In this document: one piece after another, positions 25,637 through 29,039 of the stretch
How positions within the stretch are numbered: the first letter of the stretch is position 1
Layout: each line of letters begins with the position of its first letter
DNA from: Flavobacteriales bacterium
GTDB taxonomy: Bacteria; Bacteroidota; Bacteroidia; Flavobacteriales; UBA7312
Direction of reading: 5' to 3'
Length of the DNA stretch: 64,000 bases
Assembly: GCA_965661345.1 (NCBI GenBank)
Contig: CBFIDK010000001.1
Coordinates: 74,543 to 138,542, forward strand
The notes under the pieces: generated by a model
The model's database searches: none
The model's input: only the letters and a program-made list of their open reading frames with translations
Told to the model about the DNA's origin: nothing
Made by a program: the position numbers and the translations under genes

Positions 25637-25663
25637 AAAAACCCCAAAATTTTTGGGGTTTTT
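25637..25663. terminator. Rho-independent terminator after groEL
   Basis: Palindrome AAAAACCCCAAAA-T-TTTTGGGGTTTTT located 10 nt after the groEL stop. Confidence 0.7.
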
Positions 25664-25703
25664 AATTGCTTTTTTCATAGCTTAGCAAGTCTTTTGAAAA
25701 GCC

Positions 25704-26522
25704 ATGATCATGAACTCAAAAATTACAAAGCTATTTACAGTTTTCCTTTTTTTGTATAGCTATACTATCAAATCCCAAACAGCTAACCAACTAATTCGCA
25801 TCAATAACGTAGCCGATAACAACGCTATGAACGCCATTGCTTCACCAAACGAAGGAAGCTTGGTTTACGTTAGTTCTTCTGATAATGTCTATTATTTTGG
25901 AAACGGTACATGGAACTTAATTGGAGGATCAGGCTCAACAACAGACACCAATGACGATGCGTGGGGAGTGACAGGTGAAGATTTAGTTTCAGACATAAAC
26001 AGAACAGGAAAAGTAACCATTGGTCAATCTGGAAACACAACGATTAAATTAGATGTAAATGGACAAACAATTGTCCGTAATTTACCCAATGATTTAAGCG
26101 GTGGAAAAGGAGTTATTAAATCTGACGATGGAGAATTGCGTTCAGACACCTATACCTCGCATGTTCATGGTGGTATTGTTAGCTATTCTTGGAAAAACCT
26201 TTGCCACACAAAGAAAGGCGTAGTAGTAACTGGCCATTATAAATCAGATAACAATTGTTCTAATGGACACTTTCAATTTAGGTTTCATATATGGGTAACA
26301 CCACCTTCAGTTAGTTTTGTCTATCCGCCATACGTACTAGTATATAATGACGGAAATGCTTCATTTACTTATGATTTAAACTCAACTATTCTTACTGTAA
26401 CGGCACCAACTTACTGTGGTAGTTACTCAACCCAATTCAGATTATTTAACAATAATTTACAAATGAAGCAAGGGAGTTCTGCCAGCCCACTTGAAATGGA
26501 TATAAGAGTCGAAGGCTATTAA
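25704..26522 (+). CDS. Secreted hypothetical protein, paralogue A (conserved N-module, variable Cys-containing C-module)
   Basis: 272 aa with a signal peptide (cleavage IKS|Q). The N-module reads QLIRINNVADNNAMNAIASPNEGSLVYV...TDTNDDAWGVTGED...RTGKVTIG...KLDVNGQTIVRNLP. The protein ends in IRVEGY. Confidence 0.7.
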   Translation: MIMNSKITKLFTVFLFLYSYTIKSQTANQLIRINNVADNNAMNAIASPNEGSLVYVSSSDNVYYFGNGTWNLIGGSGSTTDTNDDAWGVTGEDLVSDINRTGKVTIGQSGNTTIKLDVNGQTIVRNLPNDLSGGKGVIKSDDGELRSDTYTSHVHGGIVSYSWKNLCHTKKGVVVTGHYKSDNNCSNGHFQFRFHIWVTPPSVSFVYPPYVLVYNDGNASFTYDLNSTILTVTAPTYCGSYSTQFRLFNNNLQMKQGSSASPLEMDIRVEGY

Positions 26523-26539
26523 ACTAAATCTTCATAGTT

Positions 26540-27352
26540 ATGAAAAAAATATCTCTTCTAATATTATTTAGCTTTTTGATAAGCATCTATGCTATGGCAC
26601 AAAATGCTAGTCAACTTATCCGTCTGAATAATGTAGCCGATAACAATGTCATGAATGCCATTTCATCGCCCAATGAGGGTAGTTTGGTTTATGTCATCTC
26701 AACAAATAACATCTACTATTACGGAAATGGCACTTGGAACTTAATTGGAGGCTCTGGAGCCATAACCGATACTAATGACGATGCCTGGGGAGTAACTGGA
26801 GAAGACATCGCTTCGGACATTAGCAGAACAGGAAAAGTAACCATTGGTCAGGCTGGAAGCACAACTGTTAAATTAGACGTTAATGGCAGGACAATTGTAC
26901 GAAATTTACCAATTGACGAAGGTATAAATGCAAAGTCACTTCTTCATTCTACCAATGGGGAATTACGATCAGACAAATATACTGTTCCGCACTCCTATAT
27001 ATTATTACTAACCTCAGACTGGCAAGATCTTTGCTTTGCAAAAAATGGAGCTACAGTAACTGGATTTTATACAAGTAATAGCTATTGTTCCGAAGGGCAT
27101 TTTCAATTTAAATATCAAAATGGACAATCTGTACCATTCTTCATGGTATATCACCTAGAAGGTCCATTTCCTTCCCCATTCACCTATGACTCATCAACGG
27201 GTATTTATACTTCTACATCTTCCTGTGGTCCAGATTATGCCGCACCAGCTACGACTCAGTTTAGAGTAGTTAACGATATCTTACAAGTACGAAACGCAGT
27301 TCCTTCATCTCCAATGTTGCATTTATTCTATATTAGAGTTGAAGGGTATTAA
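26540..27352 (+). CDS. Secreted hypothetical protein, paralogue B
   Basis: 270 aa with signal peptide MKKISLLILFSFLISIYAMA|Q. By hand alignment it is about 80% identical to paralogue A over the first ~105 mature residues and about one third identical afterwards. Confidence 0.7.
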   Translation: MKKISLLILFSFLISIYAMAQNASQLIRLNNVADNNVMNAISSPNEGSLVYVISTNNIYYYGNGTWNLIGGSGAITDTNDDAWGVTGEDIASDISRTGKVTIGQAGSTTVKLDVNGRTIVRNLPIDEGINAKSLLHSTNGELRSDKYTVPHSYILLLTSDWQDLCFAKNGATVTGFYTSNSYCSEGHFQFKYQNGQSVPFFMVYHLEGPFPSPFTYDSSTGIYTSTSSCGPDYAAPATTQFRVVNDILQVRNAVPSSPMLHLFYIRVEGY

Positions 27353-27368
27353 AATTAATAACTCAGGT

Positions 27369-28148
27369 ATGAAAAAATTATGTATTCTAATTCCGTTAAG
27401 CTTATTAATAAGTTTGTTTAGTCAAGCCCAAAGTTCTAGCCAACTTGTTCGTTTAAATAATGTGACTGATAATAATGCAATGAATGCTATTTCCTCTCCC
27501 CTTCAAGGAAATTTGGTTTACGTTAATTCTGTAAATGACATTTATTATTTTGATGGCCTTTCATGGAATTTATTAGCAGGCGGGTCAGGATCCGCAACTG
27601 ACACCAATGATGATGCTTGGGGAGTAACTGGAGAAGATATAGCTTCAGACATTAGTAGAACAGGAAAAGTAACCATTGGCCCATCGGGAAATACAAGCGT
27701 GAAATTAGATATAAATGGGCAAGCCATTATTAGAAATTTACCTGATGACAATTATGGAAGAGGGGTACTTCATGCCCCTAACGGTGAATTACATTCAGAT
27801 AGGTATACTTCTCAATTTCATACTGCAGGCTTTTTACCAACAGGAGGCTGGATAAACATGAACTATGTAGAAAATGGGGTTGTAGTAACAGGCTATTATT
27901 CATTTTATTATGGGTGCTCATCAGGTCATTTTGAATTTAGATATCAGGCAGGTCAATCACCACTATATGTTCTAGAATATAATAATGGAGGCGCCTCTTT
28001 TTCCTATAATGGATCGACAGGAAACTATCAAGTTAATGGTGGCACTTGCCCCTATATGTTCTATTTTAGAATAAGTAACAATATGCTTCAAGTTTCACAA
28101 CCAACTTTTGGGGGTGTTACTTTAGATTTGAGAATAAAGGCCTATTAA
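27369..28148 (+). CDS. Secreted hypothetical protein, paralogue C
   Basis: The ORF track gives 27339..28148. Moving the start to ATG 27369 gives signal peptide MKKLCILIPLSLLISLFSQA|Q and removes the overlap with paralogue B. The protein ends in LRIKAY. Confidence 0.7.
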   Translation: MKKLCILIPLSLLISLFSQAQSSSQLVRLNNVTDNNAMNAISSPLQGNLVYVNSVNDIYYFDGLSWNLLAGGSGSATDTNDDAWGVTGEDIASDISRTGKVTIGPSGNTSVKLDINGQAIIRNLPDDNYGRGVLHAPNGELHSDRYTSQFHTAGFLPTGGWINMNYVENGVVVTGYYSFYYGCSSGHFEFRYQAGQSPLYVLEYNNGGASFSYNGSTGNYQVNGGTCPYMFYFRISNNMLQVSQPTFGGVTLDLRIKAY

Positions 28149-28169
28149 ATTCAAATTTCTAATTAAAAA

Positions 28170-28197
28170 AAAGGGTTTCGAATATTCGAAACCCTTT
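28170..28197. terminator. Perfect 28-nt palindrome between convergent genes (bidirectional terminator)
   Basis: AAAGGGTTTCGAATATTCGAAACCCTTT. The minus-strand reading is followed by T8, which makes a good terminator for 28218..29039. The plus-strand reading has only a short T run. Confidence 0.75.
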
Positions 28198-28217
28198 AAA
28201 AATAAAGTTGTTATTAA

Positions 28218-29039
28218 CTATCTATCAAGTGTCATTCGCTTTTCAATAGTGCCATCATTATAAATATAAAACAAGATTTGATTAGGTGTAAACTGAACGC
28301 TTTTCCCTTGTAAATCTCTTATTTCTAGCAATTGTCTTTTTTGACTTTCATCATTAGATGAATTATTTATGCCATTAAATAAATATAAGTTGTCTAGCAA
28401 ATCTTCATCAAAAATGAAGTCTTCAGAATTTACGAAGTCAAAAAACACTTCGTCAAAAGCATTAAGCTCATCGAAATAATTGTTTAGAGAAGAAATGGTG
28501 TCATTAAAACTATCCCAATCAAAACTTCCTTCAGAATCAAAGAAATCTTCAAAGACGTTATCTATTTCTACAGAATCATTGTCTACAAGTAAAATGCTAT
28601 CATTAAAATCCTCCCAATCAAAGCCTTCTTCAGAATCGAAGAAATCTTCAGCAGTAGTTTCAAAAAAGTTTTCATCGAAAGCATCTATTTCAAGAGAATC
28701 ATTATATAAAAGAGTGATGAAATCATTGAAATCATTCCAATCAAAGTACCCTAATGAATCAAAAAAATCTTCGAAATTTATATCTTCTCCAAAACCAAAA
28801 TCATCTTCAAAGTCATTGTCATCTCCAAAATCAGGATTATTCACAGAGTCACAATTAAAAAGAATCTGTAAATCCAAATCGTTTAATTCGCCATCCTCAT
28901 TGGCATCTATAGAAGAAAGAACTTCATATTCGATGGCAGATATTGTAAGATCTTGTCCTCCACAATCAAAAGTGTAAGTTTCTTGAGCCACAGCTACTCC
29001 CATGAACAGCATAAAGGCAGATAAGTAGTAAGTTTTCAT
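28218..29039 (-). CDS. Extremely acidic secreted repeat protein with an EF-hand/dockerin-like Ca-binding loop and a possible degenerate T9SS C-terminal domain
   Basis: 273 aa with signal peptide (cleavage AVA|QE). It has the loop DANEDGELNDLD (DxNxDGxLxxxD) and three FFDSxxxFDWxxFND repeats. There is no K, R or H between about residue 3 and 234. The C-terminus LLEIRDLQGKSVQFTPNQILFYIYNDGTIEKRMTLDR resembles the last two motifs of type-A T9SS CTDs but lacks the PNP motif. Confidence 0.65.
   Translation of the reverse strand: MKTYYLSAFMLFMGVAVAQETYTFDCGGQDLTISAIEYEVLSSIDANEDGELNDLDLQILFNCDSVNNPDFGDDNDFEDDFGFGEDINFEDFFDSLGYFDWNDFNDFITLLYNDSLEIDAFDENFFETTAEDFFDSEEGFDWEDFNDSILLVDNDSVEIDNVFEDFFDSEGSFDWDSFNDTISSLNNYFDELNAFDEVFFDFVNSEDFIFDEDLLDNLYLFNGINNSSNDESQKRQLLEIRDLQGKSVQFTPNQILFYIYNDGTIEKRMTLDR
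28501..28772 (-). repeat. Three copies of a ~50-nt core repeat (spacing 99 and 123 nt) encoding the FFDS..FDW..FND units
   Basis: Plus-strand copies lie at 28501-28550, 28600-28649 and 28723-28772: TCATTAAAACTATCCCAATCAAAAC..., TCATTAAAATCCTCCCAATCAAAGC... and TCATTGAAATCATTCCAATCAAAGT... Confidence 0.7.

Follow-up and report, generated by a model that had tools for sequence, protein, structure and literature searches.

The 64,000-nucleotide (nt) stretch analyzed here, referred to as the window, stems from an uncultured marine flavobacterium and contains, directly downstream of groEL, three tandem genes on the forward strand that encode paralogous secreted proteins (T1, T2 and T3; collectively, the triplet). 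T1 (25704–26522) encodes 272 amino acids (aa), comprising a signal peptide (25704–25775), an N-terminal module (N-module; 25776–26087) and a C-terminal module (C-module; 26088–26519). T2 (26540–27352; 270 aa) and T3 (27369–28148; 259 aa) have the same architecture, with signal peptides at 26540–26599 and 27369–27428, N-modules at 26600–26911 and 27429–27743, and C-modules at 26912–27349 and 27744–28145, respectively. The spacers measure 17 nt between T1 and T2 and 16 nt between T2 and T3. A first-pass annotation, made from the DNA letters alone, had described a same-strand triplet of 259–272-aa proteins with such spacers, and the open reading frames (ORFs), strand and lengths are as it gave them. 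T3 could alternatively initiate at an upstream TTG (27339); we consider this unlikely and prefer the ATG at 27369 because it agrees with the starts of the paralogues.

Transcription signals flanking the triplet

In the window and in close strains, the gene order is groES-groEL-triplet-acidic-protein gene-COX15. An intrinsic terminator hairpin on the forward strand (25637–25663), with a 12-base-pair (bp) stem followed by a T-run, divides the triplet from groESL. It is present in all strains compared and also in a second species (see below), there with a different stem sequence. That the stem has changed yet the hairpin has been kept provides natural compensatory evidence that the predicted terminator is functional. 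The hairpin lies at 25637–25663 in the window and at about 1215–1260 in the second-species contig L018, the stem sequences compared being AAACCCCAAAA.. and AATCCCCATCAAAAGGGGATT. A bidirectional terminator hairpin (28170–28197), with a 12-bp stem and T-runs on both sides, lies between T3 and the convergent acidic-protein gene and marks the end of the operon. As terminators flank the triplet and no terminator hairpin was found between its three genes, T1–T3 constitute one three-gene operon.

The −7 promoter box of Bacteroidota has the consensus TAnnTTTG, and the first-pass annotation had noted the absence of such a box between the groEL terminator and T1. While there is indeed no strict match in this interval, a putative box with a single mismatch, TAGCTTAG, is located on the forward strand at 25678–25685, 18 nt upstream of the T1 ATG. 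Its TAnnTTAG pattern is conserved across strains and in the second species, the aligned sequences being TAAGTTAG in L017 and L021, TACATTGT in L001, TACATTTT in L019 and TAACTTAG in L018 of the second species. This conservation suggests that the triplet has its own near-consensus promoter just past the groEL terminator.

The N-module belongs to a large class of tail-fiber-like proteins

The N-modules share 81% (T1–T2), 70% and 73% identity between paralogues, and the C-modules 42, 41 and 37%. The layout recognized in the first pass, a conserved stalk with differing tips, is thus borne out (70–81% versus 37–42%), including the divergence of the C-module; its figure of about 80% identity among N-modules fits the T1–T2 pair and is too high for the other two. 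The N-module comprises about 105 residues in three parts: a first unit of 45 residues (QLIRxxNV..NAIxxPxEGxLVYV....YYYxGxxW in the triplet; QLIRxHNV..NAIxxPxEGxLVYV....YYYDGxxW as the family form), a second unit or stalk motif (DAWGVxGED..RTGxVxIG..KLDVNG in the triplet; DGDAWGVxGED..RTGxVxIG..KLxVxG across relatives) and a short linker ending in GELRSD. The first unit usually directly follows the signal peptide or is repeated.

An exhaustive hidden Markov model search of 1.84 billion representative proteins yielded 566 matches at E < 1e-3. Only about ten of these are full-length; the others cover profile positions of about 29–75 or 70–122, many of them repeatedly, and mostly reside inside larger, often repetitive proteins of up to 2,579 aa. 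Seven relatives with the stalk motif end in a Peptidase_S74 domain ("chaperone of endosialidase"; P0018, P0020, P0021, P0051, P0058, P0068 and P0070), and three bear F5/8 type C (discoidin) domains (P0023, P0043 and P0147). Profile positions 70–122 match the S74-bearing P0018, P0020 and P0021 with E values of 1e-22 to 1e-25. The resemblance to tail-fiber-like surface proteins of Bacteroidota, which the first-pass annotation had proposed from short motifs, is therefore well founded, and homology at the sequence level assigns the N-module to a large, uncharacterized class of tail-fiber-like secreted proteins of Bacteroidota.

S74 domains chaperone trimeric fibers. The S74-terminated "tail fiber domain-containing" proteins of Bacteroidota (PF13884; P0018, P0020, P0021, P0051 and P0058) resemble the triplet in their signal peptide, in the 45-residue NAIxxPxEGxLVYV..YYYDGxxW unit and in the DAWGVxGED..GxVGIG..KLxVxG stalk motif. 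However, they span 400–1000 aa, compared to about 260 aa in the triplet proteins, which lack S74 and end in a family-specific β head. The triplet proteins therefore look like truncated members of this class but, as the defining S74 domain is missing, we do not place them in it. In the relatives with F5/8 type C domains, the same signal peptide and stalk are combined with a carbohydrate-binding domain, unlike in the triplet, whose head matches no lectin family; in the mini-fibers P0045, P0134 and P0163, they are joined to other small β heads. The occurrence of the same stalk with varied domains supports the notion of the stalk as a carrier of interchangeable binding modules. P0023 and P0147 carry the discoidin domain internally, ahead of a conserved TPDYVFE..HLPG tail that is missing from the triplet.

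The first unit also shares a hairpin pattern, P.xG.lvY....y.y.dG.W, with the T4 fibritin foldon (PF07921), Collagen_trimer (PF20010), DUF2793 (PF10983) and PF26696, although T1–T3 remain below every curated threshold of these trimerization hairpin families and an hhalign comparison with fibritin is not significant. Indeed, none of T1, T2 and T3 reaches any curated Pfam or NCBIfam threshold. Among 46 first-unit copies, 25 gave sub-threshold matches to the last 25 positions of DUF2793 (best E 0.0027) and eight to Collagen_trimer (best E 5e-4); the first unit of T2 itself matches DUF2793 below cut-off (E 0.094). The repeats of one relative, P0016, exceed the Pfam cut-offs of Phage_T7_tail, Collagen_trimer and DUF2793, and as judged from these profile matches, P0016 is the strongest bridge from the first unit to annotated phage-fiber and collagen trimerization families; a PDB search with this repeat homologue returned chance matches only. 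PF26696 ("PTL_trimer") appears as a weak precomputed match on all three triplet orthologues of L001/L002, while a local Pfam-A copy, perhaps lacking this model, gave none. A literature search on PTL_trimer, PF26696 and S74/tail-fiber proteins in Flavobacteria or Bacteroidota retrieved nothing. Taken together, the profile matches weakly suggest that the first unit is related to collagen/fiber trimerization hairpins.

P0016, a protein of 966 aa, contains seven tandem first-unit copies interleaved with segments matching Phage_T7_tail, and has a Cys-rich C-terminus unlike the rest of the set.

An AlphaFold2 model of the full-length monomer has a predicted local distance difference test score (pLDDT) of 52, and residues 70–156 fall below 50. 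Low values over these residues are to be expected if the stalk acquires its fold only upon oligomerization, and we therefore count them in favor of a trimer. Based on this disordered monomer model and on the S74 domains of relatives, we infer that the N-module trimerizes.

The C-module is a rare β domain and a probable binding head

The C-module is about 130 aa long and all-β. In a collection of 5.8 billion clustered proteins, full-length family members account for about a dozen clusters at 90% identity, all of which come from marine or seawater metagenomes plus one metagenome-assembled genome. No full-length member was found in 185,579 GTDB species-representative genomes, where the stalk motifs occur in larger proteins only, and a word-index search with the C-module alone recovered no further relatives. 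Scans of T1–T3 with Pfam, NCBIfam and PADLOC gave nothing usable, a PHROGs scan of the three proteins gave only E values of 0.06 or worse, and PDB sequence searches with the full profile and with the C-module profile returned nothing significant. The C-module is thus rare and without annotation, and the earlier label "unassigned family" holds for this module only, as the motifs of the N-module recur in 566 proteins.

All family members retain a Cys within C-[SGEQA]-x(0-3)-G-[HNS]-F-x-[FL]-[RKL]-[YF]; further conserved positions are a second Cys about 60 residues on, F-[RK], a Gln and a C-terminal R-[VIL]-[EDK]-[GAS]-Y. Of the two Cys residues said to be conserved in all three copies, one is invariant throughout the family, while the other keeps its position in most members but not in T2, where it is shifted. 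The pair probably forms a disulfide. In a gene 1 allele of one close strain (L017, 7162–7983; also P0004), Tyr replaces the invariant Cys (NNYSNGHF) next to a one-residue insertion, although the ORF is intact; this allele may be at the onset of decay, or else the protein can do without the disulfide.

AlphaFold2 modeling of T2 residues 98–270 from 15 sequences gave a pLDDT of 72.6, with a core of 80–91, and about twelve consecutive β strands. The best structural neighbors of the head are predicted phage tail-fiber/collagen-repeat proteins (template modeling [TM] scores 0.42–0.47, E about 1e-3). Hence, the C-module is a small, all-β, family-specific domain that occupies the position of the binding domains in relatives.

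A conserved base with variable tips is also the layout of polymorphic toxins or effectors, in which a conserved delivery module bears variable toxic tips, and the remote, motif-level kinship to phage fiber modules could point to a remnant of prophage or tailocin tail fibers. However, the 16–17-nt spacers are too short for immunity genes and no immunity-like small ORFs lie between the genes; there is no match to a toxin, defense or phage family, nor to phage genomes or IMG/VR contigs; and the neighbors (groEL, COX15, ribosomal proteins) include no phage genes, with the position between groEL and COX15 being fixed in two species. Moreover, Sec signal peptides are not typical of virion fibers, and the heads are conserved between orthologues (see below). 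We consider an origin of either kind highly improbable.

Export signals and C-terminal sequence

All three N-termini resemble signals for signal peptidase I with Gln at +1 (IKS↓Q, AMA↓Q and SQA↓Q), as the Q-rule for signal peptides of Bacteroidetes describes (PMC5837995). Cleavage before Gln had been predicted in the first pass, and the three proteins are Sec/signal-peptidase-I-exported paralogues. The absence of a type IX secretion system (T9SS) C-terminal domain and of a lipobox, also stated there, was confirmed: NCBIfam/Pfam scans of the three proteins gave no match to T9SS C-terminal domains of types A/B (TIGR04183/TIGR04131) at E up to 1, and no Cys is present at the three signal-peptide junctions. 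We suggest that the triplet proteins reside in the cell envelope or are extracellular.

With signal peptidase I signals only, with C-modules that line up about 10–12 strands in succession and always end in an aromatic residue, and with closed meander barrels (lipocalins, nitrobindin) among weak Foldseek matches in the PDB, one might picture the C-module as an integral outer-membrane β-barrel that anchors the N-module, in a small autotransporter-like or OmpA-like design. The β-signal of outer-membrane proteins calls for an aromatic last residue and, counted back from the C-terminus, for hydrophobic residues at positions 3, 5 and 7. The last residue is indeed Tyr; however, in 15/15 aligned members the third and fifth residues from the C-terminus are charged (E/D/K and R, respectively), so the β-signal is not fitted. 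In addition, the strands are short (5–9 residues), conserved Cys residues are unusual for outer-membrane proteins and TM-scores against barrels reach 0.21–0.26, rendering a membrane barrel very unlikely.

The triplication is old and its heads are maintained

Three assemblies of close strains were found, two with intact triplets in the gene context of the window (L001/L002 and L016/L017). The second species, rebuilt from the overlapping contigs L018 and L020, has the order groEL-P0008-P0003-P0009-COX15; its GroEL and COX15 are 97 and 81% identical to those of the window at the protein level, and dS (synonymous divergence) is saturated. T1 has orthologues in the other strains (P0004/P0005) and in the second species (P0008), where P0003 and P0009 are the orthologues of T2 and T3, respectively. 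In neighbor-joining trees of the C-modules, T1, T2 and T3 each pair with the second-species gene in the same position (bootstrap 0.81, 0.995 and 1.0). As the C-modules pair by orthologue, the triplication predates the split of the two species and each head type has been kept.

The N-module tree differs. Here, T1 and T2 of the window pair together (0.985), with a support of 0.01 or less for pairing with their orthologues, and the non-synonymous divergence (dN) between the T1 and T2 N-modules is 0.097 versus about 0.2 for orthologues. This clustering by genome points to old concerted evolution of the T1 and T2 stalks. The first-pass annotation had attributed N-module conservation to purifying selection rather than recent gene conversion. 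Recent large-scale conversion can indeed be dismissed, given a paralogue dS of 1.1–2.3 and longest identical tracts of 20–35 nt, with no conversion tract longer than 35 nt between paralogues in three strains; however, the clustering of T1 and T2 by genome shows that selection is not the only force. Synonymous divergence among paralogue N-modules is near saturation (proportion of synonymous differences 0.58–0.71), and the DDA codons differ between the copies as quoted before (GACGATGCG, GACGATGCC and GATGATGCT). T1–T3 use the same codon at 44 of 98 invariant residues, compared to 21.5 expected; synonymous sites are therefore very diverged but not fully randomized.

Genome-wise clustering of the stalks (0.985) is also what would be expected of co-evolving, interacting chains. 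C1q consists of the products of three tandem genes with a shared trimerizing stalk and three distinct globular heads, and the triplet resembles it at the gene level only, in three adjacent paralogues, a conserved stalk and divergent heads; neither sequence similarity nor detectable similarity of fold was found. The three chains might, by this analogy, co-assemble as one heterotrimer in which the shared stalk brings the three heads together into a composite binding surface. The gene order fixed in two species, the 16–17-nt spacers and the maintenance of all three head types would agree with such an assembly. On the other hand, old gene conversion accounts for the stalk tree equally well, and other lineages of the family have one or two copies: in a distant lineage, where the family lies between a gene for a 399-aa membrane protein and LuxE-like/acetyltransferase genes, L031 has one copy, L003 at least two and L033 one plus a truncated copy. 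We therefore regard a heterotrimer as unlikely.

Selection on the two modules

Calling the tip rapidly diverged or diversifying, as the first-pass annotation did, finds no support in the trees above or in the ratio of dN to dS (ω; Nei-Gojobori). Among paralogues, ω is 0.05–0.16 in the N-module and 0.28–0.50 in the C-module; pooled over three strains, it is 0.17 and 0.32, respectively, and orthologous alleles show about the same conservation in either module (89–95%). The first-pass annotation had itself set diversification of the C-module against mere relaxation or decay, and the dN/dS analysis has the module looking relaxed rather than diversifying, with the locus decayed in one strain (see below). 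The heads are not rapidly diversifying, each being maintained with its orthologue.

A local excess of replacements occurs in T2 (ω 0.8–2.2; 2–6 synonymous versus 11–19 non-synonymous changes). We considered ω > 1 in the T2 C-module (2.4 synonymous versus 17.6 non-synonymous) and rejected it as not significant (P about 0.14 by a hand binomial estimate); the signal largely stems from one cluster in the linker. At this stalk-head junction (26906–26935, residues about 123–132), T2 reads NLPIDEGINAK and the L017 allele ELPDLENFDFK, the two alleles being otherwise near-identical. The cluster may have been imported as a short tract, or it may mark a hinge that is hypervariable.

Between close strains, the triplet together with the adjacent acidic-protein gene forms a four-gene island of divergence (25704–29039) with dS of 0.13–0.18 and dN of 0.017–0.061 (0.024–0.061 in the triplet genes). 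In the flanks, dS is 0.01–0.07 (0.12 in an EamA gene) and dN mostly 0.005 or less (0.010 in the short L21 gene). Allele pairs within the patch reach a dS of 0.41. The island suggests alleles that are old (balanced) or imported.

Recombination at a repeated block and loss of the triplet

A 23-nt block, AGAACAGGAAAAGTAACCATTGG, whose identity in all copies had been noted before, lies within the codons for RTGKVTIG in T1 (26001–26023), T2 (26825–26847) and T3 (27657–27679), on the forward strand. Under the codon usage of the window, three independent copies would share its seven codons with a probability of about 1.5e-6. A functional constraint on the block at the nucleotide level was rejected, since the three second-species copies differ there at synonymous sites.

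In L019, whose GroEL is nearly identical to that of the window, a single gene replaces the 2.4-kb array. This gene is 92–100% identical to gene 1 up to the 23-nt block and 93–100% identical to gene 3 after it, so that the crossover interval is exactly the block. The chimera carries a GGA-to-TGA stop codon and a 2-nt deletion causing a frameshift. An independent assembly, P0007 (15 member sequences), contains the same chimera and the 2-nt deletion without the stop; the collapsed gene is therefore a real allele that is decaying stepwise. Recombination between conserved stalk-coding segments thus alters copy number, and the triplet locus is dispensable, strain-variable and accessory, as the first-pass annotation had supposed.

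The collapsed allele also raises the question of whether the triplet comprises relaxed, decaying remnants of a once larger fiber-gene family without present function in the host genome. P0007 is sampled about as often as intact alleles, the gene 1 allele of L017 has lost an otherwise invariant Cys, and the inter-strain dN of the triplet (0.024–0.061) stands out against 0.005 or less in the flanks. Nevertheless, the window and two other strains have retained three intact ORFs, the ω values of both modules lie well below 1, and the triplet and its head types have outlasted a species split with saturated synonymous sites. General decay is thus an improbable account of the locus.

Neighboring genes and loci of relatives

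The acidic-protein gene (28218–29039, reverse strand) encodes a secreted, very acidic repeat protein of 272 aa and is likewise accessory, being absent in the second species and split in L019. It shares the raised divergence of the triplet (dS 0.158, dN 0.017). The protein contains FFDSxGxFDWxxFND repeats and an EF-hand/dockerin-like loop (DANEDGELNDLD), and has no Pfam or NCBIfam match. Farther downstream, ribosomal protein L21 (31527–32045, forward strand) bears a Lys/Ala/Pro-rich C-terminal tail of about 70 residues and shows four non-synonymous versus one synonymous inter-strain differences.

Two Tenacibaculum loci contain stalk-motif fibers of 831 and 1063 aa (L007, 4411–6906; L010, 3826–7017) whose C-termini comprise a conserved TPDYVFD..HLPG tail and a coiled coil. 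The next gene at each locus is likewise conserved (L007, 6917–8359; L010, 7030–8481); its secreted product of about 480 aa may be a dedicated fiber partner and, as such, relevant to the question of export.

Discussion

Based on the gene structure, the homology network, the selection regime, the age of the triplication, the recombination event and the dispensability of the locus described above, we favor, at about an even chance, an accessory operon of exported, probably trimeric mini-fibers of the cell envelope, each with a conserved stalk and a paralogue-specific β binding head. The operon would be read from its own promoter just after the groEL terminator, and each product would be a Sec/signal-peptidase-I substrate and a miniature version of the tail-fiber-like proteins of Bacteroidota. 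The N-module would most likely drive assembly of a trimeric stalk and the C-module would most likely serve as the distal binding head, with a specificity that differs between paralogues; most plausibly, the heads bind envelope or environmental ligands. The triplication would be old and each head type maintained, in a locus that evolves faster than its neighbors and changes copy number by recombination between stalks. Trimerization, the binding function including its ligand, and the route of export are the parts of this model that we infer.

Several observations weigh against mini-fibers of this kind. T1–T3 have no Peptidase_S74 chaperone (no Pfam match at E up to 10), the defining feature of their best-understood relatives. 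The link to foldon-type hairpins is sub-threshold, with hhalign against T4 fibritin aligning the last hairpin at a probability of 1.3%, and a profile of the first motif found nothing significant among PDB sequences. The structural likeness of the head to phage fiber tips is weak, as Foldseek found nothing in the PDB (best TM 0.30), and phage homologues were not found, with no tblastn match in 50,697 phage records and none confirmed in an IMG/VR scan. Without a T9SS C-terminal domain, a lipobox or an outer-membrane-protein β-signal, there is no recognized route to the surface, and the default location is the periplasm. Still, no rival explanation is better supported than an operon of exported mini-fibers.

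As a further possibility, albeit quite an unlikely one, the paralogues could form a heterotrimeric, C1q-like lectin of the envelope with an undescribed head fold, with recombination between their stalk-coding repeats reshuffling or deleting heads in populations. If true, this would be a compact bacterial system with composite and strain-variable ligand recognition.

An operon of exported mini-fibers pairs a stalk of known type with a small head that is novel, and is not a new kind of system; it would leave current understanding unchanged and modestly extend a known theme. The head domain would add a small new family, and perhaps a new fold, to those catalogued. The locus is more interesting for population genetics than for biochemistry, as it documents, at nucleotide resolution and in wild marine populations, how a conserved module in tandem paralogues leads to concerted evolution and copy-number loss. 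Beyond this, Bacteroidota encode hundreds of Sec-exported tail-fiber-like proteins whose functions and export routes are essentially unstudied. The triplet represents a minimal, tractable example of these, with about 260 aa per protein, a stalk with one small head, three naturally occurring head variants and strains that are natural knock-outs, and could be used to probe how such fibers trimerize without an S74 chaperone, where in the cell they reside and which ligands they bind.

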